A stretch of 64,000 nucleotides of DNA from Candidatus Rariloculaceae bacterium (GTDB taxonomy: Bacteria; Pseudomonadota; Gammaproteobacteria; Steroidobacterales; Rariloculaceae). A program made the translations under genes and the position numbers. The notes under the pieces were generated by a model. That model saw nothing but the letters and a program-made list of their open reading frames with translations. It did not search any database and was not told the origin of the DNA. This document shows positions 14,081-64,000 of the stretch, in pieces. Location of the stretch: contig OZ250159.1 of assembly GCA_965237785.1 (NCBI GenBank), positions 117,791-181,790 of the forward strand, in the 5' to 3' direction. Position 1 is the stretch's first letter, and each line of letters begins with the position of its first letter.

Positions 14081-14236
14081 TCCGCGGGAGGGCCGCTACG
14101 GTTTGCTCAATTATGGCCCATCTATCGCCACTCTCAACCCAAACCCGTCAATCGCCTTAAACACACCAGTTTCGGAGGTACGGTAGAAAACACGCGTAGT
14201 CCAAGCTATTCTCCATATCGTGCACGCGAATCGCTC

Positions 14237-44280: not shown

Positions 44281-44310
44281 AGTTTCACCGGCAAACTAGC
44301 CGGTGAAACT
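44281..44310. repeat. perfect 12-bp inverted repeat with 6-nt spacer (agtttcaccggc aaacta gccggtgaaact) between the receptor gene and brxA
   Basis: Read directly. Followed by the AT-rich tgctatatatattttcgcctctatact and then the brxA ATG at 44346. It could be a terminator hairpin, an operator or an island boundary. Confidence 0.8.
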
Positions 44311-44345
44311 TGCTATATATATTTTCGCCTCTATACTGCTCCGCC

Positions 44346-45158: not shown

Positions 45159-45728
45159 ATGGGGCGTATGGACAGGTTGGCTGAGCGCTACGGGCGGTTT
45201 ATCTCGCTGCCTTGGCAGAAGGGACTGGCCGGAGCACAGCGCGCCATTTTCGTCGTCTATGACAAGAGCGACGAGCGGCGGTTGCGGGCTCGTATGGGTC
45301 GCTTCGAGTTGGCGACCAAGCAGGCCGGGCATGGCTGGATCCAGTGCGACCTTACCGGGGTCTTCGCGCAGTGGATGGCGAGCACGGAGTACCGGGAAAT
45401 TTATTTCGAGTCGCCGGAAGATCTGGATCTCAAGTTGGAAGACGAATTTCTCGCGCATGTTGTCGAGCGGGTGCGGCAAGCGCTGTCGGCGCCGCAAGCG
45501 GATAATGGCTCCGTGGTCGCGGTCTTCGGTATCGCGTCGCTGTTCGGGTTCGTGCGCGTGTCCGAGTTGATGAAGGCGCTTGAGCCGGACATAAGAGGCC
45601 GCATCCTGGTGTTTTTCCCGGGCGAGTACGAGGACAATAATTACCGCTTGCTGGATGCGCGGGACGGGTGGAACTACCTCGCGGTCCCGATTACCTTGCA
45701 GGAAGATCGAGGAGTGTACGAGGTATGA
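45159..45728 (+). CDS. brxB: BREX protein BrxB (DUF1788)
   Basis: 189-aa ORF. Has IFVVYDKSDERRLR, GIASLFGFVRVSELM and VFFPGEYEDNNYRLLDARDGWNYLAVPI, typical of DUF1788. Its stop overlaps the brxC ATG. Confidence 0.8.
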   Translation: MGRMDRLAERYGRFISLPWQKGLAGAQRAIFVVYDKSDERRLRARMGRFELATKQAGHGWIQCDLTGVFAQWMASTEYREIYFESPEDLDLKLEDEFLAHVVERVRQALSAPQADNGSVVAVFGIASLFGFVRVSELMKALEPDIRGRILVFFPGEYEDNNYRLLDARDGWNYLAVPITLQEDRGVYEV

Positions 45729-48700: not shown

Positions 48701-49171
48701 CGCCTGCTCGATGCGTCGGACCCGATGCCCAACCTCGCCGGGAGCTTGGCGGATGGATTGCGGGCCGCGCTGGCACAATCGCAAGATCGTTACGACGAAA
48801 CCTATGACGAGGAGCGGAAACGCCTGGAAGCCACCGGGAGCTGGCAGCAGATCAAGTCGGAGGACCGTGAAGAAATACTTGCCCGGTTTCGTATTGAGAA
48901 GGTATCCAAGGGTGCAACCGGTACCGAAAGAGAAGTGCTGGAATCCCTGGAGCGCATATCTCTTGACGGCTGGCGAACGCGCACTGCGGCTCTCACCCAG
49001 TTGTTCGCGAATGGCCGGGCCGAAGCGGACCGGCTTGTCGAGCCGGAGATACGTCACATGAAGCTGGGGAGCGCTACGCTCCGTACCCCGGAGGACGTCA
49101 AAGCTTGGGTTGAAGAAACGAAGCGGGACCTGCTGAATCAGGTCGAGCAAGGCCCTATCGTAATCGGCTAA
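45725..49171 (+). CDS. brxC: BREX ATPase BrxC/PglY (DUF499-type P-loop protein)
   Basis: ORF 45668..49171 trimmed to MKNREVYQRNP (ATG 45725, ATGA overlap). Has Walker A GFFGSGKSHLAKML and Walker B VVILDEVQQY. About 1150 aa, as expected for BrxC. Confidence 0.85.
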   Translation: MKNREVYQRNPDEIILLNNGVAVMTDAETGDDRRTLRFELEHFVCEGQYRSGLVRILNAYVSHQGQPEQPAAWISGFFGSGKSHLAKMLRFLWTDYTFPEDGASARGLARLPDEVLDLLKEVSTLGRRGHGLHAASGTLGSGPGGSVRLALLGIVFKSRGLPEGLPQARFCLWLERNGIYDQVRTAVEAQGREFRRELNDLYVSPHIANALLAEDANFATSARDARAVLRAQFPKPKDITTDEFVDVLRDTLAPEGEMPCTVVILDEVQQYIGEDTARSLAVQEVVEACSKRFGDRLLLLGTGQTALSGTPVLQRLQGRFTVNVELSDHDVETVTRRVVLAKRADRLSDIQAMLEANAGEIDRHLVGAKIAPRSEDRSILPDDYPLLPVRRRFWEHVLRAVDRAGTAGQLRTQLRIVYDAIRHTAGRSLGTVVPTDFLFDEISANMLNSGVLLRELHETIVKQGSDGTADGRLKSRLCALVFLIRKLPREAGADIGVRATMEVLADLLVEDLTKDGAALRARLPALLDELVDAGTLMKLDREYSLQTRESSDWEAEFRNRRNRIANDPTNMSGKRAQLLGAAVQEAVGSTKLLHGSSKEPRKLSLHFSAEPPREGGPEVPVWIRDGWGAVESSVIADARAAGPDSPVINVFVPKSRADGLARLIASRSAANDTLEYKGVPSTPEGVEARQGMETRLADAANQLRALVAEIIGGAKVIQGGGNERHELTLADRVREAAGASLARLYYEFNDADDHRWPKAIARARAGDEHPLAVLNYSGKTEEHPVCAAVLSFVGSGKKGRDVRAHFSGPPFGWPRDAIDAALIGLFGAGHLRATANGVVLRPPGLDQAKVPSADFRVESATVDTRQRLKLRKLFQDAGIDCKPNEESAAAGQLLEKLSRLAEDAGGDAPLPERPDTLHLSDLQSLAGNEQLLAILGRADELEKNLDDWRKAGKLAGERVPAFKRLQALARHADGLDAAKDAKSQIGAIVSGRRLLDASDPMPNLAGSLADGLRAALAQSQDRYDETYDEERKRLEATGSWQQIKSEDREEILARFRIEKVSKGATGTEREVLESLERISLDGWRTRTAALTQLFANGRAEADRLVEPEIRHMKLGSATLRTPEDVKAWVEETKRDLLNQVEQGPIVIG

Positions 49172-49183
49172 CGGAGGCACGCG

Positions 49184-50353
49184 ATGTTACTGCACCGAAT
49201 CAGACTGAAGAACGTGCTCTCGTTCGGCCCCGATGGTCAGGACCTGGAACTCAAGCCGCTGAACGTGCTGATCGGCCCGAACGGTTCCGGCAAGTCGAAT
49301 CTAATCGAGGCGATTGGATTGTTGCGGTCTGCTCCAACGGATTTGCAGAAGCCGATTCGCGAGGGCGGCGGCACCGGCAACTGGATATGGAAGGGTGAGC
49401 CAAAGGAAACCTTCGCCGAGTTGGAAGTCGTCGTTCCGTATGGTGGTAACAGGTTGCTTCGCTACAGACTGACATTCTATGAAGAAGATCAACGGTTCCG
49501 GTTGCACGGAGAGCGTTTGTGTGCCGAAGGCGATGACCGTGATCCGGATCCAATTCCTTACTTCGACGCTGGTGCAAACAACGTCCATCTGCTTTACGAG
49601 GACTCGCGCCGGGAAACTGGTCGAACCATAGTCAAAGTTAAGCCCGGAAGTTCCAATCAGTCTGTTTTCGCCAGAATCAAAGGCCCCACGTACCCTGAAC
49701 TTACGCACACAGGGGAGCAATTCCAGCGCATTCGTCTCTTCCGAGAGCCGTTTTTCGGTAGGCGCACACCGCTACGGTGGCCCCAAAAAACCGACGATCC
49801 CAACGACTTCCTCATAGAAGATGGGAAGAACCTCGGTTTGATGCTGAACCGTTTGAAGCGAGAGCCAAAGGCCAAGACTCAACTTTTGAGCGAATTGCAG
49901 AAGCTCTACGAAGGTATCGTGGACTTCGATGTGAGCATTGAGGGTGGCTCAGTCCAGGTATTTCTGCAGGAAGGCAACATTACCGTGCCCGCAACTCGTC
50001 TGTCGGACGGCACGCTCCGCTACCTTTGCTTGCTCGCCATTCTCTACCATCCAACACCTCCGCCACTCGTTTGTATCGAGGAACCGGAGTTGGGTCTACA
50101 TCCGGACATTCTTCCGGGTTTGGCGGAGTTATTGCGAGACGCCTCCGAACGCTGTCAATTGATCGTCACAACCCATTCGGACGTACTGGTGGATAAGCTC
50201 ACCGATACACCCGAAAGTGTCGTCATCTGCGAGAAGCACGGCGGGCAAACTCAACTGCAACGCTTGGACAAGGATGAACTCACCCATTGGCTTGAGCGAT
50301 ACAGCCTCGGGGTCCTGTGGACGAAAGGCGAATTGGGAGGGAACCGCTGGTGA
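49184..50353 (+). CDS. ABC/SMC-type ATPase (AAA_21-like), non-canonical insert in the BREX locus
   Basis: 389-aa ORF with GGAGG upstream. Has Walker A GPNGSGKSNLIEAI, a signature-like LSDGTLRYLCLL, Walker B LVCIEEPELGLHP and H-loop IVTTHSD. Confidence 0.8.
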   Translation: MLLHRIRLKNVLSFGPDGQDLELKPLNVLIGPNGSGKSNLIEAIGLLRSAPTDLQKPIREGGGTGNWIWKGEPKETFAELEVVVPYGGNRLLRYRLTFYEEDQRFRLHGERLCAEGDDRDPDPIPYFDAGANNVHLLYEDSRRETGRTIVKVKPGSSNQSVFARIKGPTYPELTHTGEQFQRIRLFREPFFGRRTPLRWPQKTDDPNDFLIEDGKNLGLMLNRLKREPKAKTQLLSELQKLYEGIVDFDVSIEGGSVQVFLQEGNITVPATRLSDGTLRYLCLLAILYHPTPPPLVCIEEPELGLHPDILPGLAELLRDASERCQLIVTTHSDVLVDKLTDTPESVVICEKHGGQTQLQRLDKDELTHWLERYSLGVLWTKGELGGNRW

Positions 50354-50958
50354 GCTCGATTGTATATGTGGAAGGTGGCGGAGATACCAAAGCGTTGAGA
50401 ACAGAATGCCGAAAGGGCTTTGGTGAATTCTTCGACAAGGCAGGACTGAAGGGCCGCATGCCAAGAATCTCGGCTTGCGGCAGCCGACAGCAAGCATATG
50501 ATGATTTTCGCCACGCTTTAGACAAACCAGGGAATGACCGTTTTGCGGTGTTGCTGGTCGACAGCGAAGGGCCGGTCGCAAAGGTGTCCGACGCATGGTC
50601 ACACTTGAAGACTCGCGACAACTGGAATCGTCCGGATATGGCCACGCATGACGGCGCCCATCTGATGGTTCAATGCATGGAGGCATGGTTTTTGGCCGAT
50701 CAGGCCACGCTGGCGGAGTTTTTCGGAGTTGGATTCAACCGAAACGCCCTCCCGGCCCGCCCGGATGTCGAGAACATTCAGAAAGCTGATATTGGGCAGG
50801 GATTGAACAGAGCCACGCGCCGGTGCGCGTCAAAAGGCGCGTACCGCAAAGGACGACACTCGTTCGCGATTTTAGCGAAGTTAAACCCTGAGAAGGTGGT
50901 TGCTGCCTCGCCGCATGCAAAGCGGTTGGTAGACACTCTCTTGGCCAAGGCGTCGTAA
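50350..50958 (+). CDS. DUF4276 family protein (partner of the preceding ATPase)
   Basis: GTG 50350 overlaps the ATPase stop (GTGA), with GGGAGGG 8 nt upstream; the alternative GTG at 50317 is the track start. VSSIVYVEGGGDTKALRTECRKGF...AVLLVDSEGP...MVQCMEAWFLAD matches my recollection of DUF4276. Confidence 0.65.
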   Translation: MSSIVYVEGGGDTKALRTECRKGFGEFFDKAGLKGRMPRISACGSRQQAYDDFRHALDKPGNDRFAVLLVDSEGPVAKVSDAWSHLKTRDNWNRPDMATHDGAHLMVQCMEAWFLADQATLAEFFGVGFNRNALPARPDVENIQKADIGQGLNRATRRCASKGAYRKGRHSFAILAKLNPEKVVAASPHAKRLVDTLLAKAS

Positions 50959-51031: not shown

Positions 51032-51244
51032 ATGGCCAGACAACTGACAGCGATCATCGAACGTGAGGACGAGGGTCATGTCTCCCGCGGTCCAGAGATG
51101 GACACTGCGATCACAGTACCGGAAACACTCGCCATCCATTGCCGCGAACCCTACGAACATATGAACTTCGATAAGTACACGCCGCGCCGCCGACCGCGCG
51201 CTCACACGCGCCAAGTCGGCGACCGGTGTGCCCCACGTTACTGA
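51032..51244 (+). pseudogene. chimeric remnant: HicB-antitoxin-like N-terminus fused to a diverged copy of the pglX 5' region
   Basis: 70-aa ORF. MARQLTAIIEREDEGHVSRGPEMD resembles a HicB N-terminus (..AIIEREDDGYVA.CPELD..). ETLAIHCREPYEHMNFDKYTPRRRPRAHTRQVGDR parallels pglX residues EALAVHRREPYEHMSGKQRLQRRRLRARGRQLGDR (52.3-52.44 kb). Confidence 0.5.
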
Positions 51245-51253
51245 GACCCAAAT

Positions 51254-52261
51254 ATGGCATTCAAAAGAACGGAAAATACCTTTGATACTGTCCTCGATTG
51301 GGCCGGTTTCATCGCCATAAGTGTGATCGCGACGGCTGTACTCAGCGCGGTAATCCACCATTTTCTTCATGTCGAGTTTCCGGATGCCACAATCAGGGTG
51401 TTGATATTTAGTGTCGTAGCGGCTCTCATCGCCGTGCTAATTTCGGCTCACTTCATCGCCGTTTTTACGCGAGATTTATCAGTCAATGGTTCTAGTAAAT
51501 CCAGTCAAAATAACGAGTCGTTTCCGCCTCGGTTAAAAACGGTCTTCGTTTATGGGTATATCCTTATGTTGGCGGCCTTGGGTTTGTGCGCAGCGCCATT
51601 TGTTGTTCCTATTGACGCGGTTGACCATTCTTCTAAAGAAACGTTCGCCGTCGGCATTGTTGCTGGCTGTCGTTCCGATGACTGCGCTGAGACTGTCAAT
51701 GAACCGCAATGGTTCCTCCACATTGGAAGTAGCATCTCGACGCTTGCGATAGACGGTCAGCCCGCGAGCAACGAACTCAAGGGCGGGCTTGTAGTTCCCC
51801 TCTACATTGTATTACTCGCCTTGATGGGCGGTTCGGTGAGCATGATACGGCGAGTACCGGAATATCAAAAACAAGCAGCAGGCCAGAGTAGCGATAAGAA
51901 CCCTGACAAGGTGTCATCCATCACGCCGATCCGTGCTCGGGAATTGGTCGTTTTCCAGATAATGCAGGTCTTTACAGCTCCATTGATTGCTGTTACTGCC
52001 TTTGCGGTATTCGATCCCGACACCGTCACATCGGGAGCGTTGCTTGGATTCCTGTCAGGTTTTACATCTGAGACGATTCTCTTACGTTTGCGCGTTGCGA
52101 CAGACGCACTCTCGGGACGAACAAACAAGGTTCCAACCAAAGATGCCACCTCGCCCGCGTCCTCGGCCCCGCCCAGCGCTGCGTCGGGACGGAAGGATAC
52201 AGATTTAAATGCAGGGGCTCAGCAGGCACAGGACGGGGCGAATGCGAACCCTGGAGGCTGA
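51254..52261 (+). CDS. predicted ~6-TM membrane protein of unknown function, low-GC insert immediately upstream of and overlapping pglX
   Basis: 335-aa ORF with hydrophobic helices (FIAISVIATAVLSAVIHHFL, VLIFSVVAALIAVLISAHFIAVF, YGYILMLAALGLCAAPFVV, LVVPLYIVLLALMGGSVSMI, FQIMQVFTAPLIAVTAFAVF, LLGFLSGFTSETILL). It has an Ala/Ser/Pro-rich tail. Hand counts of two 60-nt lines (51241, 51481) give 40% GC. Confidence 0.6.
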   Translation: MAFKRTENTFDTVLDWAGFIAISVIATAVLSAVIHHFLHVEFPDATIRVLIFSVVAALIAVLISAHFIAVFTRDLSVNGSSKSSQNNESFPPRLKTVFVYGYILMLAALGLCAAPFVVPIDAVDHSSKETFAVGIVAGCRSDDCAETVNEPQWFLHIGSSISTLAIDGQPASNELKGGLVVPLYIVLLALMGGSVSMIRRVPEYQKQAAGQSSDKNPDKVSSITPIRARELVVFQIMQVFTAPLIAVTAFAVFDPDTVTSGALLGFLSGFTSETILLRLRVATDALSGRTNKVPTKDATSPASSAPPSAASGRKDTDLNAGAQQAQDGANANPGG

Positions 52262-55200
52262 ATATAGGAAACAACTTGAGCGAGTTGTCTCAGAGGCCCG
52301 TGACGTAGCGGAGTCTGGGGCTCGCACGGCGCTGGAGGCACTCGCCGTGCATCGGCGCGAGCCCTACGAGCATATGAGTGGGAAACAGCGGTTGCAGCGT
52401 CGGCGGCTGCGCGCCCGCGGCCGGCAACTCGGCGACCGGCGCGATGCACGCTCCGGAACTCAAGTCATCGGCCGCTTGGCGCACGAATGCGCCTACGAGC
52501 GCTGGCACGGTATGCTGTTTGCCCGTTTCCTCGCTGAGAACCGTCTGCTCATCGAACCGGAGTTTAGCGTCGCCGTCACGCTGGCGGAATGTGAGGAACT
52601 GGCGAAAGAAGGGGGCATTGACAAGTGGGCGATGGCCGCGCGCTTTGCTCATCGGATGCTGCCCCAGGTGTTCCGTCCCGATCATCGGGCTTTCGAGGTT
52701 CCGTTTGCGCGAGAACACCGGCTGAAGCTGGAGGAGTTGGTCGAAAGTCTGCCGGCTGGCGTGTTCACGGCGACGGATTCTCTCGGCTGGGTCTACCAGT
52801 TCTGGCAGTCCAGAAAGAAGGCCGAGGTGAACCGTTCCGAGGTCAAGATCGGGGCGGACGAGTTGCCGGCGGTGACGCAGTTGTTCACGGAGCCCTACAT
52901 GGTGAGCTTCCTGCTCGACAACGCCCTTGGAGCTTGGTGGGCGGCGCGCCGTCTGAGCGACACTGAACTGAATGCCGCCACCGGCGAAGCGGAGCTACGG
53001 CGTAAAGCAGCGATTCCCGGTTTGCCACTCGATTACTTGCGCTTCGTACAATGCGAAGATACTGCGGAGCGGGCCGAATGGCGCCCCGCGGCCGGCACCT
53101 TCGACGGTTGGCCGGATGATTTGGGGGAGCTGAGAGTCCTCGATCCCTGCTGCGGCTCCGGGCATTTCCTGGTAGCGGCCTTCTCGATGCTCGTGCCCAT
53201 GCGCATGGCGCGGGAGGGGCTCGCCGCCCGCGACGCCGTCGATGCGGTCTTGTGGGAGAATCTGCATGGACTGGAGTTGGACCCGCGCTGCGTGGAACTT
53301 GCGGCGTTCGCGCTTGCGCTTGCCGCCTGGACGTATCCCGGCGCGGGCGGGTATCGGTCCCTGCCGGAGTTAAACATCGCCTGCTCGGGGCTCTCGGTCG
53401 GGACCGCAAAGGAGCGCTGGACCGAACTGGCGGAGGGCAGGCACAACCTGCGGATCGCATTGGACTGGATGCATGTCGCGTTCAGGGATGCGCCGGTACT
53501 GGGTAGTCTGCTGGACCCTGCCGCAACGGAAGCTGCCAAGCTGATGGACTGGCGAGACTTGTCGGCTGCCTTGGCGGAGGCTCTCGCGCGGGAGGAGTCC
53601 GACGAACGGCGCGAGACCGCGGTTGCGGCCCGGGGACTCGCCAGAGCCGCCGAGTTGCTGTCCGGGCGGTATCACTGGGTGATCACCAACGTGCCGTATC
53701 TCGCCCGCGGCAAGCAGGGCAAGACGCTGCGCCGCTTCTGCGAACAGCGTTACTCCGCCGCAAAAAACGATCTGGCCACGGTGTTTTTGGAGCGCTGCCT
53801 GGAACTGTGCATGGAGGGCGGAACCGCCAGCCTCGTGCTCCCGCAGAACTGGCTGTTTCTCACCAGCTACCGAACACTCCGGGAAAAGCTGCTAAAGACG
53901 GAGACTTGGCATTTGCTCGCTCGACTTGGTCCGAAAGCCTTTCGAACGCCCATGTGGGACTTCAATGTTCAGTTGCTCACCCTAAGCCACGATAACCGTG
54001 CCAGGCGCGCAGGTGGATTGTTCGGCGAAGAAGAGTCTCTCGGCACGATGTGCGGTCTGGATGTTTCCGAATCCCGCACCGCTAGTGGCAAAGCCATTCA
54101 GTTGGCAGATACGGCAATCCAAAGCGTTGAGCAGGCTCGACAGTTGGAGAACCCGGATGCGCGGGTGTCGCTGGACGACATCTCTAGTCAAGGGAGGCTG
54201 GATCGCTATTGCATAAGCATCGAAGGCCTGACGACGGGGGATTTGGGGAGATTTGTCGGCAAGTTCTGGGAGGGAACGCTTTTAGACGGTTGGGACCCAT
54301 ATATTCAGAACGTAGATTCCACAACACATTTCGGCGGTCGTACTGACCGAATCTTCTGGGAAAATGGAAACGGTGTGCTATCTCGGTTTCCAACTGCACA
54401 TAATTTCCCCAGCGAAATCATGAACGGTAAAAGAGTTTTGGGGAAGACTGGGCTCCGTGTAACTCAAATGGGGGCACTCCCGGTAACAACCTACAAGGGT
54501 GAAGTATTTGGCAAGAACGGGGCGACGGTTGTACCAAATGACCCGGAGCATCTCCCCGCTATCTGGTGCTTTTGCTCATCTCCAGAATACAGCGAGGCGG
54601 TGAGGTGTATCGACCAGGCGCTCAAAGTCACCAACGCAACCCTGGCTAAGGTTCCCTTCGATTTTGACCGTTGGGCCAAGGTTGCCAACGAACGATACCC
54701 GAGCGGTTTTCCTCTCCCATACGCCGATGATCCCACCCAATGGATATTCCACGGTCATCCGTGCGGATCGGTCGTTTGGGATGAGACGGAGAAACGAACT
54801 GCCCATGGTCCAGTTCGCACCGACGTTACTGTATTGCAGACCGCCGTCGCCCGCTTGCTCGGATACCGCTGGCCCGCAGAACAGGATGCCGACATTGAAT
54901 TGGCCGACGAGCAGCGTGCGTGGGTACAGCGCTGCAATGTACTCCTCGCCCACGCAGACGAGGACGGCATAGTCTGCATCCCATCGGTGCGCGGCGAACC
55001 GTCGGCTAGCGAGCGCGTGTTAGACTTTCTGAGGGCTGCCTTTGATGATGGTTGGGATAACGACGTCCTCAATACGCTGCTCGCCAAGACAGGAAGCTCT
55101 ACCCTCGATGATTGGTTACGGAATCGTTTCTTTGGCGAGCACTGCAAGACGTTTCACCACCGTCCGTTCGTCTGGCACGTCTGGGACGGTCGCCGAAATG

Positions 55201-55703
55201 ACGGCTTCCACGCGCTTATCAACTATCACAAGCTGGCGGCGGGTGACGGCAGGGGCCGCCGACTCCTGGAATCCCTGACCTATAGCTATCTCGGTGACTG
55301 GATCGCCCGCCAACAAGACGGCGTGAAGCGCGGCGAAGGCGGCGCCGAGGACCGGCTGGCCGCGGCACTGGAACTACAGAAACGCCTGGTTGCCATCATT
55401 GCGGGCGAGCCGCCCTTCGATATCTTCGTCCGCTGGAAACCTATCGAAGATCAGCCTATCGGATGGGAACCGGACATCAACGACGGAGTGCGCCTCAACA
55501 TCCGCCCGTTCATGGCCGACGATATCCCCGGCGGCAAGAAGGGAGCCGGCATCCTCCGTGCGAAACCGAACATTCACTGGCGGAAGGATCGTGGCAAGGA
55601 GCCGTTCCGAGAACAGGAGCAGTTCCCGTGGTTCTGGCACAATGGCGAATTCACCGGCGAGCGAGTAAACGATGTGCACCTGACAGTCATGGAGCGCTCG
55701 TGA
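52242..55703 (+). CDS. pglX: BREX adenine-specific DNA methyltransferase PglX
   Basis: ORF 52209..55703, with start at 52209 or 52242. Has ERWHGMLFARFLAENRLLIEP and the SAM motif VLDPCCGSGHFLV. The catalytic motif is VITNVPYL (an NPPY variant). About 1150 aa, downstream of brxABC. Confidence 0.85.
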   Translation: MRTLEAEYRKQLERVVSEARDVAESGARTALEALAVHRREPYEHMSGKQRLQRRRLRARGRQLGDRRDARSGTQVIGRLAHECAYERWHGMLFARFLAENRLLIEPEFSVAVTLAECEELAKEGGIDKWAMAARFAHRMLPQVFRPDHRAFEVPFAREHRLKLEELVESLPAGVFTATDSLGWVYQFWQSRKKAEVNRSEVKIGADELPAVTQLFTEPYMVSFLLDNALGAWWAARRLSDTELNAATGEAELRRKAAIPGLPLDYLRFVQCEDTAERAEWRPAAGTFDGWPDDLGELRVLDPCCGSGHFLVAAFSMLVPMRMAREGLAARDAVDAVLWENLHGLELDPRCVELAAFALALAAWTYPGAGGYRSLPELNIACSGLSVGTAKERWTELAEGRHNLRIALDWMHVAFRDAPVLGSLLDPAATEAAKLMDWRDLSAALAEALAREESDERRETAVAARGLARAAELLSGRYHWVITNVPYLARGKQGKTLRRFCEQRYSAAKNDLATVFLERCLELCMEGGTASLVLPQNWLFLTSYRTLREKLLKTETWHLLARLGPKAFRTPMWDFNVQLLTLSHDNRARRAGGLFGEEESLGTMCGLDVSESRTASGKAIQLADTAIQSVEQARQLENPDARVSLDDISSQGRLDRYCISIEGLTTGDLGRFVGKFWEGTLLDGWDPYIQNVDSTTHFGGRTDRIFWENGNGVLSRFPTAHNFPSEIMNGKRVLGKTGLRVTQMGALPVTTYKGEVFGKNGATVVPNDPEHLPAIWCFCSSPEYSEAVRCIDQALKVTNATLAKVPFDFDRWAKVANERYPSGFPLPYADDPTQWIFHGHPCGSVVWDETEKRTAHGPVRTDVTVLQTAVARLLGYRWPAEQDADIELADEQRAWVQRCNVLLAHADEDGIVCIPSVRGEPSASERVLDFLRAAFDDGWDNDVLNTLLAKTGSSTLDDWLRNRFFGEHCKTFHHRPFVWHVWDGRRNDGFHALINYHKLAAGDGRGRRLLESLTYSYLGDWIARQQDGVKRGEGGAEDRLAAALELQKRLVAIIAGEPPFDIFVRWKPIEDQPIGWEPDINDGVRLNIRPFMADDIPGGKKGAGILRAKPNIHWRKDRGKEPFREQEQFPWFWHNGEFTGERVNDVHLTVMERS

Positions 55704-58700
55704 TCGACTTTAGTCTTATCAAGCCGGCAGCGTCCATTTTCGCACGCATCGTGCCGCGCTTTCGCCGCTTGGCGGCTGAGCGGCAAGTGGCTCGCAGTCC
55801 CCATAAGGTGCCTCCAGATCACGCAGATCAGATATTCGAAGAGGCGTTGCGGCGTCTTGGCGCGGTCAATAGCGATGACCCTGAATGGAAACGGATCGTT
55901 GGATCCGCGATCAGTGGGATCATACAACCCGCGCATTTCCGCAAGCCCCAAGTAAAGGAGTGGCTTTCCCGGACGGATACCAAGCAAGACTTGAAGATAC
56001 TCGCGAAGGCGGCGCTTGTCGGCGAGGCTGCGAATGGTGAAGCAACAAATCGGTTGATATCCACATACATGGATATCTCCGGTGAAGACAAGCATTGCGC
56101 AGAGTCGGTCATCCAGAGCGTGGGAGCGGTTCTCAGGACTAGTTTGACCGCGACGGTCCAGGACCCCGGAACAGCGGCCTACGTTCAGGCAGGGTTCGCA
56201 TCCTTGAATCGTCGCATTGACGCGACGGGCATCCCGTCGCTGGTCCCGATCACGCACGGCGCGACCGAGCCTACCGACGAGGGCGCGAAGATCGATGTCT
56301 CGGTTGTTCGACGTGCCTTTGGAGAAGCTTCGCGTTTGCTGCTGGGTTGGCCTCAAGATACGGACGGACATTGGATCGACCGTCCGGAACTAGATCAACT
56401 ACACAGTCGGGCCACGCAGGAAGAACCTGCACTTACTGTGCTACTGGGGCGTCCCGGAGCAGGAAAGTCGGCGATCCTTGCGCGGCTGGGCGCTAGGCTT
56501 AAGGAAGAGGGAAAAATCTTGTTGGCGATCAAGGTCGACCAGATTCCCGCAGGCTGCTCTACGCTCGCTGATATTGATGAGTGGGTAGGGTGCGAAGACG
56601 TAACGAATGCACTTCGTCAGTTGTCGGAAACGCGGCGCGTCGTGGTGTTGATCGACCAACTCGATGCGTTGGCCGATCTGATGGATCAGCACTCAAACCG
56701 TCTCACGGCGCTCCTTCAGCTTGTTGGGTCGATAAGGGGAACGCCGAATCTCCAGGTCATATTGTCGTGCCGGGAGTTTGAATTTCGCAACGACGTGCGG
56801 CTGAGCACGTTGGGCGCCGAAGCGGTGACGCTGGAACCGCCGCCTTGGGAAGCTGTGGCGCCTTTGCTAAGCACGTATGGCGTTTCGGTTGAACAGTTCG
56901 GTGAGGAGCAGCGCGAAGTTCTCCGCACACCGCAACACCTGGCCGTATTCGTCCACTATTTCGTCAAGCGGGATCGGCAACCGGTGTTCTCAACGTATCA
57001 GGCGCTTCTTGACCACGCCATCAGGGAAGATATCGAGGGCGTGTACGGCCGGCGGACGGTGTCGGCGGCCGAACGTGTTGCTATTGAGATGGCGAGTGAT
57101 GAGGAACTATGGATAGCTCGGGGTCGATTTACGGCGGAATACAACGATGAGCTAAACAATCTTTTGGCGGCTGGGTTCCTGGTGCAATCGGAGAATGGCC
57201 TCAGCATCGCGTTCCGCCATCAGACTGTATTCGATTTCCTCCGCGCAAGAGCCTTCATGGGCGGTGGCCGCAATCTGGCCGAGTACGTCCTCACCGAGAA
57301 GCAAGAGTCTCTGTTCGTTCGGCCGATTCTATGGAGCGCGTTGACTTACCTGCGTGAAAGTGACCGCGCGGTGTATCGGCGAGAGCTTGACCGCTTGTGG
57401 AGTCACGATGAGTTGCGATTGCACCTGCGGTTGCTGATTGCCGCCTTTTTGGGGCAACTTCCGGATCCCGATGAGGTGGAGGCGGCCTGGTTGCTGCCGA
57501 AGCTGGATGATGCGGAATTCAAGAGGAAGATACTGCTCGCGATGGCGGGTAGTCCCGGCTGGTTTAATAGAATGAAGGCTCGTCTGCCCGGTCTTATGTC
57601 GGCGGGGCGGGAACAGGCATCGAATTTGACGCCACTACTCGGCAGGGCGATGGCCTTTGCCCGCGACGATGTGTTGGCCCTTGTTGAGAAACACTGGTTG
57701 ACACGCGATGAATGCTGCTCGCTCGTCTATTGGATGCTCTATGACCTAACTTCATGGGACCGTAAAAGCGTGGATTTGGCGGGGCGATTCGCAGCGAAAG
57801 TTGCCGACGGCTCGTCCGGAGATAGTCATCAAGCGCTCCATATTGCGAAACAAATTGCGAAACAGAAGCCCGATATGGCGCCCGTCGTGCTGTTCCGATA
57901 CTTGCAGGAACGTACTGATCGGATGTTTACCAGCAGCGAGTCCGGCGGACAGTCGATGGATCGCGAAATTGCAGGACTGTTCGGAAGCAGTGGCGATTGG
58001 TACGGCGTGAACGAACTGGCAAGCAAGGCGCCCAACGAGTTCATTCGGCACGGATGGCGCTGGTTGACGAAGACACTCGGGAGGTTGGCCCAAGACGCGA
58101 ATCCCTTCATGGTCGAATATCGGGGTTGCCATAATTTTCCAAGTTGGGGCGATAACGACGAAACGCTGTGGAGCGCCTTTGAAGCGGCAATGCGGCGGTT
58201 CGCAGAGACCGAACCCGACGAATTCTTGAGGTTCGTCAACGAGAACAAGCAGTTAGACCTGATGCTGGTGCATCATCTACTGGCGCTTGGCCTTGAACGA
58301 ATTGCGCCGGAAGATCCCCAGGCCGTTATCGACTACCTGCTTGGCGACGCCAGGCGCTTCGCGATTGGGGACGTCATGAGTCGTCATCGCTTTAGCCGAG
58401 GATTGATCGCCGGCGTCGTGCCCAAGGCGTTGAACGTCGACGTATCGCGTTTAGAACTGGCGATCCTAAACTGGCGGTACTATCGAGACTTGGGCGAAGA
58501 CCCCAAATCGCGTTTCGGGAGGATGAAGTGGATAAGAGAGTCTCGGATGAGGCTTTTGCGTTGCTTTCCATCTGAACAGTTGTCTTCAGAGACGCGAGGA
58601 TACCTACGGGAGGAAGAACGAGCGCTTCCGAATGTCAAGGATGACGAGATCGGCCCTTTGCGAGGTGGTTGGGTCGGCAGTCCAATGACCGCGCAGCAGA

Positions 58701-60193
58701 TGGAAGCGGCTACAGACGATCACATCCTCAACCTCTTTAGAGAACTGAGTGACGACACGGAATGGCACCATCCGAGAAGACAAATGGAATTCGTGGGCGG
58801 CTCCATTCAAGCGTCCCGAGCATTCGCGGAGTTTGCCACGCACAACCCGGATCGCGCACTCAGGATCATGGATAGCTTTCAGGCTGGTAAGCAGGAACGC
58901 CCCGCAGGGGAAGCCCTTGCAAAATTGGGTGATAGCGCTGTTTCGCCGGACATACTGATTGCGTGCATTCGCCGTTTGCACGTCCGAGGCTTTGCATCGG
59001 AGCATTTTCGTAGCGATGCGGCGAGATGCTTAAGCGAAGTCGCCTGTCGCAACGAGGGTCTCGACGACAATACCTGCGCACTTCTGGAGAGTTGGATCAC
59101 GGACACGCCGCCGGAGATGCAACGTCCCGGGACCGACAATCCCACCGATGTTGATGAGACGGACCAGGGTGCTACTAGCGTAGCGCAACATAGCCTGCTT
59201 TGGGACATCGGAGGAAGTCATATCCTTCCTCACGGCAACTATCCGGTCATAGAGGCTCTGGCGCTGGGTTACCTGCACAGAGATCCAATGGATGCCGACG
59301 GGTGGTTGGGTGTTTTGATTCGGCACAGTGCTCGCGAAGAGGCTGACGAAGTTTGGTTAGCGATTACGCAGTATCTACCCTATCTTGAGAAAGCTAATCG
59401 TCCACAGTCAGTCGCATTCTTGCGCCAGTTCTTCGACGCTCATCCAGATGTGCTCCTTTGTCAAATGGGCGTTCGAATGGTGTATAGCGTTCTAGGTTGG
59501 CTACCTGAACCCATGATAGACCGCATCATAGATACTTGGGCAACAGCTTCATGGCCGCAGGGTCCTCAGGCAGCGGGCGAGGTTGCTCTGGTGCCATATC
59601 TTAGGGGTCCCGAACGGAGTGCAGCATCGGAGCGGGTTGAACGAATGCTGGACGGATCCGCGTACGAAGCAGATACTTTGGAGGGGCTATATATTGGATT
59701 CGCGCATACGCTGACTGTTGCGTGGCGGGAAACCGATTTGCGCCCACTGGCCACACGGCTGCTAATTCGGCTCATGTCCTTCCGGAGCGAAGAGCTATCG
59801 AAGGCCGTTTCCAGGCTTTTCCTTGGCAAGGAATCGTTGCCGCCGGACCAATATACCGAGCAGATCCTGCGGGCGTGTCTTGACCACCCTCACATACTTG
59901 TCACGGCACGCGATAGCTTCCTGGTAGATCGACTACGTGAGCTATTGGCCAACGGCTGGAACCCGCTCTTGGTGCATGCGGTTGCCAATAGGTATTTGGA
60001 ATGTAGTAGCCAGCGAGGGCGTCGCGACGGGCGGAAGATGCGCGCGCATGCAGATTTAGTTGAACTGGCGCTTACGTTGCATCGCCTTCCCGATACGCGG
60101 GCGCAAGGGCTGGACCTCTTTGAGAAACTCTTGGTGTTGAGTGCATATGACGCCGAGGAGCGGCTTAAGACTTTGGATCGGCGAGCGCAATGA
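55700..60193 (+). CDS. giant STAND/NLR-like P-loop NTPase with long helical-repeat C-terminal region; no recognisable effector domain
   Basis: ORF 55463..60193, with probable GTG start at 55700 overlapping the pglX stop (GTGA) and GGAG 5 nt upstream. Has Walker A LLGRPGAGKSAIL and Walker B VVVLIDQLDALAD. These are followed by about 1000 aa of helix-rich, HEAT/ARM-like sequence. Confidence 0.7.
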   Translation: MIDFSLIKPAASIFARIVPRFRRLAAERQVARSPHKVPPDHADQIFEEALRRLGAVNSDDPEWKRIVGSAISGIIQPAHFRKPQVKEWLSRTDTKQDLKILAKAALVGEAANGEATNRLISTYMDISGEDKHCAESVIQSVGAVLRTSLTATVQDPGTAAYVQAGFASLNRRIDATGIPSLVPITHGATEPTDEGAKIDVSVVRRAFGEASRLLLGWPQDTDGHWIDRPELDQLHSRATQEEPALTVLLGRPGAGKSAILARLGARLKEEGKILLAIKVDQIPAGCSTLADIDEWVGCEDVTNALRQLSETRRVVVLIDQLDALADLMDQHSNRLTALLQLVGSIRGTPNLQVILSCREFEFRNDVRLSTLGAEAVTLEPPPWEAVAPLLSTYGVSVEQFGEEQREVLRTPQHLAVFVHYFVKRDRQPVFSTYQALLDHAIREDIEGVYGRRTVSAAERVAIEMASDEELWIARGRFTAEYNDELNNLLAAGFLVQSENGLSIAFRHQTVFDFLRARAFMGGGRNLAEYVLTEKQESLFVRPILWSALTYLRESDRAVYRRELDRLWSHDELRLHLRLLIAAFLGQLPDPDEVEAAWLLPKLDDAEFKRKILLAMAGSPGWFNRMKARLPGLMSAGREQASNLTPLLGRAMAFARDDVLALVEKHWLTRDECCSLVYWMLYDLTSWDRKSVDLAGRFAAKVADGSSGDSHQALHIAKQIAKQKPDMAPVVLFRYLQERTDRMFTSSESGGQSMDREIAGLFGSSGDWYGVNELASKAPNEFIRHGWRWLTKTLGRLAQDANPFMVEYRGCHNFPSWGDNDETLWSAFEAAMRRFAETEPDEFLRFVNENKQLDLMLVHHLLALGLERIAPEDPQAVIDYLLGDARRFAIGDVMSRHRFSRGLIAGVVPKALNVDVSRLELAILNWRYYRDLGEDPKSRFGRMKWIRESRMRLLRCFPSEQLSSETRGYLREEERALPNVKDDEIGPLRGGWVGSPMTAQQMEAATDDHILNLFRELSDDTEWHHPRRQMEFVGGSIQASRAFAEFATHNPDRALRIMDSFQAGKQERPAGEALAKLGDSAVSPDILIACIRRLHVRGFASEHFRSDAARCLSEVACRNEGLDDNTCALLESWITDTPPEMQRPGTDNPTDVDETDQGATSVAQHSLLWDIGGSHILPHGNYPVIEALALGYLHRDPMDADGWLGVLIRHSAREEADEVWLAITQYLPYLEKANRPQSVAFLRQFFDAHPDVLLCQMGVRMVYSVLGWLPEPMIDRIIDTWATASWPQGPQAAGEVALVPYLRGPERSAASERVERMLDGSAYEADTLEGLYIGFAHTLTVAWRETDLRPLATRLLIRLMSFRSEELSKAVSRLFLGKESLPPDQYTEQILRACLDHPHILVTARDSFLVDRLRELLANGWNPLLVHAVANRYLECSSQRGRRDGRKMRAHADLVELALTLHRLPDTRAQGLDLFEKLLVLSAYDAEERLKTLDRRAQ

Positions 60194-60336: not shown

Positions 60337-63087
60337 ATGAACTTTGAACGAAAACGAACCGAGAAATGGCAGCGCGAAATACCGGGGGCGCGTTGGTTCA
60401 AGGCCGACCTCCATGTGCATACGATCGACGACCTTGCCGGCGGGCGCGCCAAAATGCCGGATGGCTTGTCGGGCAATCCGGAGGACCCGAGCGTACTGTC
60501 AGCGTATGCGAGACGTTTTTTGCGAGGGGTTGTTGCTAGCGGGGTGCAAGTCGTTGGCTTGACCCCGCATTCGCCACGAGTTGGAAGCGATCCCGGTACA
60601 AGCGCTGTTTGGAAGATCGTAGAGGAGTGGAACTGCGCGGAAGACGACGACGGTATTCCCTTTCGAGAGAAGATTTTTGCCGTATTCCCGGGGTTTGAGC
60701 CATCATTCAAAAATGGTTCTGAAGGGTTGCATCTCCTCTTTCTGTTCGATCCGGAAATCGGCTGTAACAACTACTTGAAATTGTTCGATGTCGTCATGGC
60801 GGGCGTTTCTGTCTGGAGAGACAGAAATTTGAATATGTCGAACATGAGTGCAGATGACGCTTTCGAGAACTTGAGGGATTTTCGTAGCCGCGAGCGCACG
60901 GTTTGGAGCCACATTGTGCTAGCCCCGCACATTGATGCGCGCAAAGGGCTATTGGGGGCGCAAAAGGCCCAAGTCCTTGAAGTATTCAGCCATGATGAGT
61001 TGGCAGGGCTGGAATTAGGCGATGAAAAGTTGCCGGCAGATACAATCCAGAATCGACCTTGGCTTGTCCACGGCATGCAAACCCACCGTCAAGCATTCTT
61101 TCACGCCAGCGACGCCTACTCGATTGGTGAAATCGGCAAACGGCATACATGGATGAAGCTCGCGAGTCCCCGCATTGAAGCCTTGCGTCAAGCGTTCATC
61201 GCCAGCGATTCAAGGATGCGCATCGGCTTTATCCGAGACGAGAACAATGGGCTGAAGGAACTCCCGGCGCCACCGGATGTGACGCTGAACAATCGACCGT
61301 GGCTGAAGTCGGTTACCGTGCGCGGCGGGGCGTCTTTCTTCGGCGGAAATGAAAAAAACAAGCCAAGGGAAACGCGCTTTGATCTGAGCCCTGACCTGAC
61401 TTGCATCATCGGCGGGAGCATGACTGGCAAGAGTACGCTGCTCGATGGCTTGCGCGTATACCTCGGCGCTCCCAAGCCCGGCGATGACTCGATTAATGAA
61501 CAAGTACAGGGGAGGGGAAAATTTCGTTTCTTGTCGGGCTCTCCGGAAATCGAAATCGACGCTCCGGGTAGCGACCCGACAGCTTCGCCCCACGAGCGGT
61601 GGCCGGCGGATTTTTTCGCGCAGAGTGAACTACAGCGGCTTGCCCAAGCGAGGTCAATCGAGGAACTTCTCGCCAAACTGACTTCCGTCGAAGTTGCGGA
61701 AATTGATGATCGAAAATCAGCGCTGAAGGGACTGGATAGGCAACTTTACGATGCAGCAAAACGCTTGGACAAACTCGACGAAGCGCTTGCCGAAGCAGAG
61801 CAGGACCATGCGCGCGCCAAGCAAGCCAAGAACGAACTCGATGCGTTTGAGGACGCTGGCGTGAGCAGGCTCCACGCGCTTGGCCGCCGCCGGCAAATCT
61901 GGAAGGCGGCATATGATGAAGGTCAAAGTTTGCGATCGGCGATCGATAAGGTATTCACTTCAGCTCGGTCGCTGACAGTCCCTAAGGTCGATGAGGAACT
62001 GAAAAATATTCTGGCCGAATCCAGCGTCAATCCGGCGCTGCTTGACCCGGAGGGTTGCTTGTCTTTGGTCCCGGGACACTTGCAGTCGGCGAGCGGCGAA
62101 TTGAAAGCCTGGACTAACGCGGTCGCAAAAACCGTCGAGATGTTGGAGCACCGTGAGTCTACCGCCAAGACCGAAGTCGAGCGAGCTTTGGCAGCGTTGG
62201 GCTTGGAGTCGAGCAAACTTACAGAATTTCAGAAACTTAACCAAAAGGCGGCGCTGCTCACAAGCTATGAGGCAAACCTTGAGCACACGCGCGTTCGAGT
62301 CCAAACCGCGGAACGCTCCTTCGCAACATTGCGGCAACAACGTGACGGCTTGGTTCATGAGCAGCGCAGGGCGTTTGACCGCGTGCTGGAATACGTTGCG
62401 CGACAATTCGGCCGCCGAATTCGCGCGCGGCGTATTGAGAACGGAGACACGAAATCCCTAAACAAGTTTCTGTCCAATTTGGCTCAAAAGGGAGTGACCC
62501 GGTGGTGGAACGGGCTGGAGTCGAACAAAAAACCTTCGCCCGGAGAATTGCTCGATCGTCTTGCCAACAACACCCTCGACAAGGTTGGAATGAGTCCGGC
62601 GGTGCAACAGACGTTTCGAGAATCCGCCACCAAATCCAGGCGGCGCGAATTAGCCGCCCTTCGCGCGCCGGACATCTACGTTCTTGAAATGCGTCTGGAC
62701 GACGGCACCTATCGTCAACTGGATGAGCTTTCCGGTGGCCAGAGGGTCAGTATCCTGCTCTCGCTTCTTCTTGAGACCGCCGACAACCGACCGCTGGTAA
62801 TCGATCAGCCGGAAGATGAACTCGACAACCACTTCTTGTGGACGACCATTCTGCCGGCTCTAAAGAAACTCAAGGGGCAACGTCAGATAGTGGTCGCCAC
62901 CCACAATCCGAACATCGTCGTGAACGGAGACGCGGACATGGTTATTCAACTTGAAGCCACCGCGCAACGTGGATCGATCGCGCAAGCCGGAGCGATTGAG
63001 GAACCGGCCGTTCGAGACGCCATCGTTCGAACGGTTGACGGCGGCGACGAGGCGTTTCGCCTACGGCGGCGAAAATACGGTTTCTGA
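60337..63087 (+). CDS. PHP-domain + ABC/SMC-type ATPase fusion (PplA / TrlF-like, names from memory)
   Basis: 916-aa ORF. N-terminal PHP motif FKADLHVHTIDD. Walker A IIGGSMTGKSTLLDG, then about 300 aa of coiled coil. Signature LSGGQRVS, Walker B LVIDQPEDELD and H-loop VVATHNPN. Confidence 0.75.
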   Translation: MNFERKRTEKWQREIPGARWFKADLHVHTIDDLAGGRAKMPDGLSGNPEDPSVLSAYARRFLRGVVASGVQVVGLTPHSPRVGSDPGTSAVWKIVEEWNCAEDDDGIPFREKIFAVFPGFEPSFKNGSEGLHLLFLFDPEIGCNNYLKLFDVVMAGVSVWRDRNLNMSNMSADDAFENLRDFRSRERTVWSHIVLAPHIDARKGLLGAQKAQVLEVFSHDELAGLELGDEKLPADTIQNRPWLVHGMQTHRQAFFHASDAYSIGEIGKRHTWMKLASPRIEALRQAFIASDSRMRIGFIRDENNGLKELPAPPDVTLNNRPWLKSVTVRGGASFFGGNEKNKPRETRFDLSPDLTCIIGGSMTGKSTLLDGLRVYLGAPKPGDDSINEQVQGRGKFRFLSGSPEIEIDAPGSDPTASPHERWPADFFAQSELQRLAQARSIEELLAKLTSVEVAEIDDRKSALKGLDRQLYDAAKRLDKLDEALAEAEQDHARAKQAKNELDAFEDAGVSRLHALGRRRQIWKAAYDEGQSLRSAIDKVFTSARSLTVPKVDEELKNILAESSVNPALLDPEGCLSLVPGHLQSASGELKAWTNAVAKTVEMLEHRESTAKTEVERALAALGLESSKLTEFQKLNQKAALLTSYEANLEHTRVRVQTAERSFATLRQQRDGLVHEQRRAFDRVLEYVARQFGRRIRARRIENGDTKSLNKFLSNLAQKGVTRWWNGLESNKKPSPGELLDRLANNTLDKVGMSPAVQQTFRESATKSRRRELAALRAPDIYVLEMRLDDGTYRQLDELSGGQRVSILLSLLLETADNRPLVIDQPEDELDNHFLWTTILPALKKLKGQRQIVVATHNPNIVVNGDADMVIQLEATAQRGSIAQAGAIEEPAVRDAIVRTVDGGDEAFRLRRRKYGF

Positions 63088-63097
63088 GGAACAAGAC

Positions 63098-64000
63098 ATG
63101 GAATGGCCCGACGTATTGCGGCGCATCGAAGGCGGGGAAGACGCCCTTACCGAGTTCAAGCGCGGTCTCGGAGACTTCAGCGGCGTCGGCAAGACGCTAT
63201 GTGCATTTGCGAATGGCGATGGCGGTCTTATCGTGGTTGGCGTCGTCGATCCCGGGGTGATCGTCGGTGTGAGGGAAAATCCGGAGGCCGTGCAGGAACG
63301 GCTGACGAGCTTCCTTAACAGTGGCTGTGGAAAACCCATCACTGCCCAGTGCGGCCGTCGCGAAACGACCGATGGATGGGTGCATTGGGTCGAAGTTCGC
63401 CGCCATCAGCGAGGATATGAGCCGTTCAGCTATGACGGGCGGTTCTGGATTCGGCGGGTGCGAAGTACGGTCCACCCATCTCCCTCGGAGTTACAGGAAC
63501 TATTGAATGTTTTCGGCTTGGTGCTAACTGAGCAACAGGTCATCTCGACAGCAGCGGTCAGCGATATCGATGTGGGCGCTTTTCGCTCGTTCATGCAGGC
63601 GCAGGGTATGCGAATGGAGGAAGAGCCGCAGCCGGACATCGAAAATGACATGCTAAACGCCGCGGTGTGCGACTGGTTGGAGGGCGTGCTTCGCCCAACG
63701 CTATATGGAGTAATGGTTTTCGGCAAAGAGCCGCAGGGACATCCGCACACAACCAGCCTGTTCATTCAGTGTGTCGCCTACGATGGCGTCGACCAAGCCG
63801 CGGAAGTGCTGAGCGCGGGCGAGGGGAAGGGCCGCCTAGACGAACAGGTGAGCCATTCCATGGGATGGTTTCGCAGCTTGGGACGAGGAGAGGCTTATCG
63901 AGGGCTGTATCGCGAGGATATACCCCTCGTACCGGAAGGAGTTCTCCGGGAAGCGCTCGTCAACGCCGTTATTCACCGTGACTATGCATTGACTGGGTCG
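63098..64000 (+). CDS. AlbA_2 (Schlafen-like 'divergent AAA') DNA-binding domain protein, 3' end beyond the right edge
   Basis: Not in the ORF track (no stop in the window). Hand translation from ATG 63098 gives MEWPDVLRRIEGGEDALTEFKRGLGDFSGVGKTLCAFANGDGGLIVVGV.... It continues to ...VLREALVNAVIHRDYALTGS and is open to position 64000. The start lies 10 nt after the preceding stop. Confidence 0.7.
   Translation, partial: MEWPDVLRRIEGGEDALTEFKRGLGDFSGVGKTLCAFANGDGGLIVVGVVDPGVIVGVRENPEAVQERLTSFLNSGCGKPITAQCGRRETTDGWVHWVEVRRHQRGYEPFSYDGRFWIRRVRSTVHPSPSELQELLNVFGLVLTEQQVISTAAVSDIDVGAFRSFMQAQGMRMEEEPQPDIENDMLNAAVCDWLEGVLRPTLYGVMVFGKEPQGHPHTTSLFIQCVAYDGVDQAAEVLSAGEGKGRLDEQVSHSMGWFRSLGRGEAYRGLYREDIPLVPEGVLREALVNAVIHRDYALTGS

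Follow-up and report, generated by a model that had tools for sequence, protein, structure and literature searches.

A 1497-residue Avs-like STAND NTPase as probable exchangeable cargo in the pglX-pglZ interval of a type I BREX locus

The 64,000-nucleotide stretch of contig OZ250159.1 analysed here (the window), from a Candidatus Rariloculaceae bacterium, carries a type I BREX (bacteriophage exclusion) locus in which the methyltransferase gene pglX is followed directly by a gene for a 1497-residue STAND NTPase. We interpret the product of this gene as probably a self-contained, single-protein antiviral STAND sensor, carried as exchangeable cargo between pglX and pglZ and co-expressed with BREX. 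It is very probable that the gene is an autonomous Avs-like defence gene, and its N-terminal helical domain, here termed domain X, is likely to be the effector itself. The protein belongs to the STAND superfamily by its Walker A and B motifs, a significant match to STAND proteins and a three-part layout. It is thus an Avs-like STAND of a known kind; what is new is the N-terminal domain and the well-defined nesting site within BREX.

Loci with related genes were collected through full-length alignments of the STAND family and of a PIN family that shares domain X. A STAND gene directly after pglX in type I BREX was found in nine distinct loci at 45-100% identity (the window together with L001, L002, L005, L006, L007/L008, L009, L010, L011 and L013), of which L013 comes from Candidatus Rariloculaceae, a gammaproteobacterial family. 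The two genes overlap by 4 nt in seven of these loci and are separated by a short gap in the other two. The genes downstream of STAND vary, comprising a TrlF-like gene with an AlbA_2-HATPase gene, an AAA_15 gene with DUF3226, a reverse-strand ABC ATPase, or a second pglX, and none is conserved across these BREX loci. In every STAND-bearing BREX locus pglZ lies downstream, as does brxL wherever the contig reaches.

The original prediction had located the gene at the place expected for pglZ. Metagenome contig L001, which is identical to the window in each protein compared (PglX, STAND, TrlF-like and others), runs past the window end through a 402-aa AlbA_2/HATPase_c_4 gene (12762-13970) into the N-terminus of PglZ (PADLOC PglZ 2.4e-75), whose start lies ~420 nt beyond the window end. 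Because the PglZ N-terminus comes right after the AlbA_2 gene, pglZ is displaced and not replaced, which rules out STAND as its substitute. With pglZ and brxL downstream (L001, L005-L013), STAND is one of several alternative inserts. A role as a BREX core component is likewise ruled out by the retained pglZ and by sister loci with PglX 73-79% identical that have no STAND.

These sister loci also show what else the position can hold. Three close BREX loci are without STAND, namely L153 (PglX 79% identical), L154 (76%) and L155 (73%). In L153, pglX is followed by SIR2_2 and HerA genes (12550-15631) and then by pglZ. In L154 and L155 the next gene is TrlF-like, and its ATG shares bases with the pglX stop (ATGA); stop/start coupling after pglX is therefore not peculiar to STAND, as two of the three STAND-less loci share the overlap. 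The last pglX codons vary with the cargo. Since the sister loci hold other defence modules and the end of pglX changes with them, the site directly behind pglX is a hotspot at which defence cargo recombines. PglX proteins at least 62% identical form more than 120 clusters, versus 25 clusters of the domain X-type STAND. The insert genes are also lower in G+C (STAND 0.568, TrlF-like 0.558, the HEC-01 pair ~0.55, and a 335-aa open reading frame (ORF) at 0.52, the lowest of the locus) than their surroundings (brxA-C 0.60-0.64, pglX 0.608, the remaining window 0.633). The status of STAND as cargo rests on the downstream pglZ, the lower G+C, the sister loci with other cargo and the cluster counts.

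Evidence for autonomy comes from outside BREX. An intact STAND copy (77% identical) in L003/L004 lies in another island beside HipAB, IS21 and SIR2_2, with a dN/dS of 0.25 (ratio of nonsynonymous to synonymous substitution rates); upstream it retains ~65 nt from the 3' end of pglX, so that this copy evidently moved out of a BREX locus. It is followed by the SIR2_2 gene and a gene for a 926-aa protein (L003 15529-19031). A divergent STAND subtype in L016 (42% identical) has no pglX upstream, and L020 holds a degraded copy. BREX genes, sought in relatives by tblastn with one BREX lineage on contigs of which some were short, were found in none of 59 genome loci of relatives without domain X, and none occurred in 24 loci of PIN-type proteins that carry domain X. 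Within the STAND family, BREX genes were seen only beside domain X-carrying copies. The intact, selected non-BREX copy and the loci of relatives and PIN-type proteins without BREX argue for an autonomous gene, and the 24 PIN-type loci rule out domain X as a BREX-docking module.

It had also been suggested that the protein is a sensor lacking its own effector that works with a neighbour such as the PHP-ATPase (TrlF-like) gene downstream. The PHP-ATPase is absent beside STAND in L007, L009, L010 and L011 and present without STAND in L154 and L155, which rules it out as an obligate partner. This inconstancy, the selected non-BREX copy (L003) and the presence of domain X in the effector position speak against an effector-less sensor.

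On the plus strand the STAND frame can be read from an ATG at 55463, which lies within pglX and 237 nt upstream of position 55700, to 60193, with the stop codon at 60191-60193. The overlap of its GTG start (55700) with the pglX TGA (55701-55703) was correctly recognised at the outset; that this GTG is the only plausible start needs qualification, given the in-frame ATG at 55463. GTG 55700 is nevertheless favoured, because the homologues start at the aligned MID(F/L) position, the junction is conserved and independent gene callers agree on a protein of 1497 aa. The junction ...ATGGAGCG(C/A)TC(G/A)TGA, that is GTGA or ATGA, is kept in L002, L005, L006, L007, L010 and L013. A direct read-out of the sequence confirmed the length and coordinates of the ORF, its motifs and the gap of 143 nt to the PHP-ATPase gene at 60337. 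No promoter-like sites were found between pglX and STAND or within the STAND gene, and terminator-like sites in the same regions were at or below shuffle expectation.

Pairwise dN/dS values of the STAND gene against five orthologues were 0.24-0.28 overall, 0.12-0.20 for the NTPase, 0.24-0.28 for the C-terminal part and 0.29-0.38 for the N-terminal domain. All three parts are under purifying selection, and the low values identify STAND as a selected coding frame. Synonymous divergence from L002 and L005 varies between the parts of the gene, with a dS of 0.64-0.82 for the N-terminal domain, 0.22-0.28 for the NTPase and 0.42-0.57 for the sensor, which hints at mosaic recombination between STAND alleles.

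A search of 5.8 billion proteins at E<=1e-3 returned 206 STAND homologues; by these and the dN/dS values the frame far exceeds what chance would produce. N-terminal classes were counted on the best 120 of these 206 (E=0 to 1e-280), that is, the identical protein P0001 and 119 others. Among these 120, a TIR domain heads 75 proteins, the helical domain of the query 25, a Cap4/DUF4297-like domain seven, SEFIR/TIR two and an Mrr-like domain one, the remainder being short or absent; aa 1-200 of the window protein contain no TIR_2 or SEFIR, which sets it apart from the TIR-STAND proteins. Recognisable effectors thus replace domain X in the TIR-, SEFIR-, Mrr- and Cap4-headed relatives, none of whose 59 loci has BREX. 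The swapping is confined to the first ~170-300 aa, and for most homologues the common core begins at ~aa 190-200. Instead of the helical N-terminus of ~240 aa described initially, the variable part therefore consists of ~170 aa and a linker, with the family-wide core running from near aa 198. The core (aa ~200-1497) is 39-51% identical to that of TIR-, SEFIR-, Mrr- and Cap4-type relatives (e.g. P0035, P0043, P0076, P0030), with many residues invariant across the classes in both NTPase and sensor, including Trp, Arg, His and Cys. G250, P252, G253, G255, K256, S257, D319, Q320, L321 and D322 are invariant in 30 family members.

Against model libraries the protein was matched weakly or not at all. 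The Pfam models nSTAND_NTPase5 (28.6 bits), AAA_16, nSTAND1/3 and NACHT all scored under their gathering cut-offs. In PADLOC no named v2 system was matched, and the Avs and Dsr1 models gave no match to the STAND protein; PDC-M54A gave weak partial matches of 44 and 32 bits, limited to the NTPase region (positions ~303-438 and 540-635 in models of about 1620-1660) and short of full length. No NCBIfam antiphage model was matched, EruA reaching 14.8 bits versus a cut-off of 1000, and by the PADLOC and NCBIfam models the protein does not belong to Avs1-5 (AVAST), bNACHT or Erebus/EruA. BrxD-like or helicase domains were not detected with Pfam or PADLOC, in agreement with the original prediction, which did not recognise it as any of the named BREX genes.

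Among solved structures, sequence searches matched only Avs7 of Salmonella enterica (SeAvs7; PDB 9N00/9N01/9YIX), and the match covers the NTPase and winged-helix region only (for 9N00, phmmer E 5.2e-28 over aa 198-601; family profile E 5.7e-38). SeAvs7 is an antiviral STAND with a Cap4 head, and its TPR sensor holds the major capsid protein of the phage in a clamp along with EF-Tu (bioRxiv 10.64898/2026.01.04.697583). The two proteins are similar in size (1523 aa and 1497 aa) and in the order of effector, NTPase and helical-repeat sensor, and the Avs7 family likewise swaps many N-terminal effectors, including the Cap4 type that is also seen in the STAND relatives. They differ in the sensor: the profile of aa 590-1497 has no similarity to the SeAvs7 chain, and the PADLOC Dsr1 models, which should cover the Avs7/Dsr1 sensor, do not match. 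The N-terminal domain of the window protein is not Cap4 either, and recognition of capsid protein and EF-Tu is not to be assumed.

The C-terminal part was modelled with AlphaFold2 (aa 590-1497) as all-alpha helical repeats with a model confidence (pLDDT) of 83.9. The best Foldseek matches were the HEAT/ARM solenoids transportin-3, CAND1 and SF3B1 (E about 1e-5, TM-score 0.2-0.3), a likeness of the predicted fold that we regard as generic. Searched against PDB sequences including 9N00, the sensor profile found only chance matches at E<=10. A bilobed TPR sensor of the Avs7 type is thus not recognisable at the sequence level, and the top structural matches are HEAT karyopherins, from a library that may omit 9N00. 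A confident match to a characterised family exists for the NTPase and not for the sensor; the proteins share an NTPase clade, but the sensors do not match in sequence, and we therefore do not file the window protein as Avs7. Naming the sensor after a known relative was rejected, since the PDB sequence profile gave none and Foldseek only generic HEAT/ARM repeats. The splitting of the protein for structural comparison, recommended in the original prediction, yielded a generic solenoid for the repeat array and no match for the N-terminus. The Avs-like three-part layout proposed there is upheld by the P-loop, the SeAvs7 match, the solenoid model and the swapping of N-termini.

Domain X was modelled from 19 sequences as all-helical, with a pLDDT of 62 overall and 75-90 for aa 40-150. 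It had no Pfam match at E<=1, including the EAD, bDLD, TRADD-N, TIR_2 and SEFIR models, and no Foldseek match in PDB or BFVD at E<=0.001, nothing falling below E 0.09, so that a fold assignment was abandoned. The earlier reading that the N-terminus holds no nuclease, TIR, SIR2, HEPN or protease agrees with these searches. Conservation across 157 copies falls on R23, L24, E27, R28, P34, L53, W63, P77, W88, L89, L119, Y123, G128, E129, A134, L145 and Q163, along with an Ala at position 30 that is Val in the window protein; no catalytic set of His, Asp, Cys or Ser is among them.

A profile search of 1.84 billion representative proteins recovered domain X in 323 of them, with an N-terminal position in all but two of the best 150 of the 323. 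Most of the long proteins are not STANDs but combine TPR, HTH_upst_double_PIN and PIN domains in about 1400-2075 aa, and at least 76 representative TPR-HTH-double-PIN proteins are headed by domain X. These proteins (Pfam HTH_upst_double_PIN, PIN-TPR-GreABC) carry domain X at the same position with profile E-values down to 1e-41, but on an unrelated TPR and PIN scaffold that has no P-loop and is not in BREX loci. Further carriers are other STAND NTPases and scaffolds of no recognised family. In the PIN family the same position is otherwise taken by PNP_UDP_1, Mrr_cat, HNH_2, SMEK_N, a DUF676 esterase or transmembrane segments. Because this position swaps with effector domains, domain X occupies the effector slot of two unrelated scaffolds. 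From its exchange with TIR, SEFIR, Mrr and Cap4-like domains in one family and with enzymes in the PIN family, we read domain X as a previously undescribed and probably non-enzymatic effector.

How such an effector might act is a more tentative matter. A leader of ~20 moderately hydrophobic residues (best Kyte-Doolittle 19-mer 1.17; family mean 1.26, with seven of 31 members reaching 1.6) precedes a basic motif. This leader helix with its basic collar, the helical bundle and the lack of conserved catalytic residues suggest a non-enzymatic, membrane-active effector, a serious though still tentative possibility; another self-contained toxic activity is unlikely. Plant CNL proteins such as ZAR1 and fungal NLRs carry N-terminal cell-death domains of the coiled-coil and HeLo type, respectively. 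By analogy, domain X would resemble them in being small, helical and N-terminal, in opening with a hydrophobic helix and in heading an NLR-like NTPase; it differs in having no similarity to them in sequence or in fold (Foldseek PDB, E<=0.001), and its membrane activity is putative. A fuller version of this idea, which we consider rather doubtful, makes domain X a non-enzymatic cell-death module that is the counterpart of coiled-coil and HeLo domains in function and not in ancestry, is activated by proximity to insert its hydrophobic leader into the membrane and serves at least three unrelated scaffolds (the domain X STAND family, other STANDs and the TPR-PIN proteins); in this BREX lineage the STAND bearing it would have stayed translationally coupled to pglX as a fail-safe, killing the cell once a phage has overcome BREX.

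Phage sensing and killing by the STAND protein are inferred from characterised Avs proteins (Avs1-4, SeAvs7). By this analogy, the HEAT-like solenoid would bind a phage protein made during infection. Binding would lift autoinhibition and allow ATP-bound NTPase domains to oligomerise, and the oligomer would gather and activate the N-terminal domains, so that the infected cell is arrested or killed. The STAND protein would then act as a second layer of defence once BREX has been bypassed.

Several points weigh against the interpretation of STAND as self-contained cargo with its own effector. STAND remains attached to pglX in nine loci while the genes downstream change, which is tighter than expected of casual cargo, and PglX identity tracks STAND identity across the loci; the tight linkage and the co-varying identities leave room for a functional tie between the two proteins. 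Distant BREX types may moreover have been missed among relatives, because detection relied on a single lineage and partly on short contigs. A functional tie could mean that STAND is a guard or accessory wired to PglX or BREX, which would respond when PglX is inhibited or decoyed, much as PARIS senses Ocr, or would act through BREX proteins. We consider this quite unlikely, even though the adjacency to pglX persists down to 45% identity in overlaps and short gaps, BREX accompanies only the domain X copies of the family, and back-up modules are known in BREX loci (PMC12839542). The slot accepts other cargo with the same type of overlap in two of three loci, and the intact, selected copy outside BREX and the domain X of PIN-type proteins in 24 non-BREX loci do not fit a guard. 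Neither does the core, which is common to TIR-type relatives at 39-51% identity and without BREX nearby, and which argues for a shared, BREX-independent ligand.

Other doubts concern domain X. Any activity proposed for it is conjecture drawn from where it sits and what it is composed of, since the predicted model is of moderate confidence and nothing matched it; the leader falls short of a classical transmembrane helix; and the PIN family has a nuclease at its C-terminus, so that an N-terminal position is no proof of an effector role. One alternative is an adaptor: domain X, as a Death-like or effector-associated domain, would on oligomerisation recruit an effector from a separate gene, leaving the protein a sensor with no effector of its own. 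Helical adaptors have reportedly been described at the N-termini of STAND proteins, and domain X is small, all-helical and without catalytic residues, accompanied in the PIN family by that C-terminal nuclease. The partners in known adaptor pairs usually have neighbouring genes, however, and two odd cases aside no second copy of domain X was found in the flanks of 13 STAND and 24 PIN loci, which disfavours an adaptor pair. With no conserved gene downstream of STAND and no match to the EAD, bDLD and TRADD-N models, membership among Death-like or effector-associated adaptors is not supported, and an adaptor role appears improbable. Finally, the NTPase could serve housekeeping or regulation, or the gene could be no more than an inert, decaying hitch-hiker of the operon. 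In favour of this, Pfam STAND matches stay under their gathering thresholds and one copy (L020) is degraded. Purifying selection in all parts, the invariant P-loop, relatives with TIR, SEFIR, Mrr and Cap4-like immune effectors, the setting among defence genes and an antiviral Avs as the nearest solved relative make such a non-defence role very improbable. Self-contained antiviral cargo with domain X as its effector remains the interpretation we prefer.

The remaining features of the locus are compiled in Table 1. The PHP-ATPase scored 351.5 bits with NCBIfam NF045780 (TrlF), barely above the cut-off of 350, and matched Ppl_antiphage partially at 134 bits versus a cut-off of 1000 (PADLOC Ppl 4e-30); no mention of TrlF was found in the literature searched.

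Table 1 Coordinates of the BREX locus and of the parts of the STAND protein in the window
Feature	Position	Strand	Basis or remark
brxA	44310-45155		PADLOC/Pfam/NCBIfam map
brxB	45159-45728		PADLOC/Pfam/NCBIfam map
brxC	45668-49171		PADLOC/Pfam/NCBIfam map
HEC-01A/B pair (AAA_21 ATPase + DUF4276)	49184-50958		PADLOC HEC-01A 5e-160, HEC-01B 3e-80
70-aa ORF	51032-51244		Short PglX-like stretch
335-aa hydrophobic ORF	51254-52261		Overlaps pglX start
pglX, BREX methyltransferase	52209..55703	+	PADLOC PDLC02528 1672 bits, full length; Pfam Eco57I, N6_Mtase, MmeI_Mtase; start at 52242 according to gene callers
Coupling junction	55691..55703	+	GGAG 55691-55694, 5-nt spacer, GTG 55700 overlapping pglX TGA 55701-55703
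STAND NTPase gene, 1497 aa	55700..60193	+	ORF and translation, homologues
Domain X: hydrophobic leader helix, basic RRLxAERxAG motif, helical bundle (aa 1-170)	55700..56209	+	
Variable linker (aa 171-197)	56210..56290	+	Low pLDDT, poorly aligned among homologues
Pre-NTPase segment, P-loop NTPase, helical/winged-helix modules (aa 198-600)	56291..57499	+	
Walker A GRPGAGKS (aa 250-257)	56447-56470		
Walker B VVVLIDQLDAL (aa 314-324)	56639-56671		
Alpha-solenoid sensor, ~900 aa (aa 601-1497)	57500..60190	+	
PHP + OLD/ABC-type ATPase (TrlF family, Ppl-like)	60337..63087	+	
AlbA_2 (Schlafen-like) + HATPase_c_4 gene	63098..64000	+	Frame translation; runs past window end

The HEC-01 pair lies between brxC and pglX in most related BREX loci, with or without STAND (L002, L005, L006, L009, L153, L155), and this interval looks like a near-constant second cargo slot. 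The 335-aa ORF has several hydrophobic segments and no family match; it is kept in L002 (84%) and L006 (57%), and elsewhere its position holds ThsB_TIR and 8xMP genes or is empty. In the 70-aa ORF, the stretch TVPETLAIHCREPYEHMN is identical at 12 of 18 positions to PglX residues 40-57. This ORF may be a scar that cargo insertion left in the form of a duplicated pglX 5' end; no direct repeat was detected there at the DNA level (51032-51244). Several BREX loci have two pglX copies (L005 2005-10004, L007 2017-10004, L010 2105-10004, L011 6107-18491). Between the copies lies a gene of 354-356 aa of no recognised family in L005, L007 and L010; in L011, STAND is flanked on one side by a split pglX (736 + 403 aa) and on the other by a second pglX of full length. 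The double pglX may provide two methylation specificities or a specificity-switching arrangement. The AlbA_2 and HATPase_c_4 gene directly precedes pglZ, with up to four such genes stacked in L155, and according to a 2026 BREX survey this module occurs widely among BREX loci (PMC12839542).

BREX operons are known to harbour further defence modules, among them BrxU/GmrSD, PARIS-like OLD-ABC+TOPRIM and Schlafen-like RNases (PMC8565348, PMC12839542). STAND resembles them in lying inside the operon between core genes and in alternating with other defence modules in its slot. The 2026 BREX survey catalogues nucleases, OLD-ABC and Schlafen modules, and in the passages searched it mentions an active STAND NTPase only as the BrxB homologue of the BRC system (PMC12839542); a large active STAND coupled to pglX does not appear in those passages, and the words TIR and PHP are absent from the text. 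A 2026 survey of STAND proteins distinguished 589 clades and at least 90 defence-associated sensor types, and the domain X-type STAND family may be among its unnamed clades.

For the annotation of this locus, the result means that BREX is complete and that the large gene downstream of pglX should be read as nested cargo and not as a new core gene. It also places a cargo hotspot precisely at the 3' end of pglX, where modules start at or right beside the pglX stop, and which is useful for mining defence genes and for understanding layered immunity in BREX operons. At the level of protein families, it delineates an Avs-like family, in which a HEAT-like sensor of 900 aa is conserved while the N-terminal head comes in at least five alternatives, and a widespread orphan helical domain, with 323 representative clusters, in the effector slots of unrelated conflict proteins. 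Once found, the activity of domain X and the phage trigger of the sensor would extend the repertoire of bacterial NLRs by an effector type and a recognition specificity, respectively.

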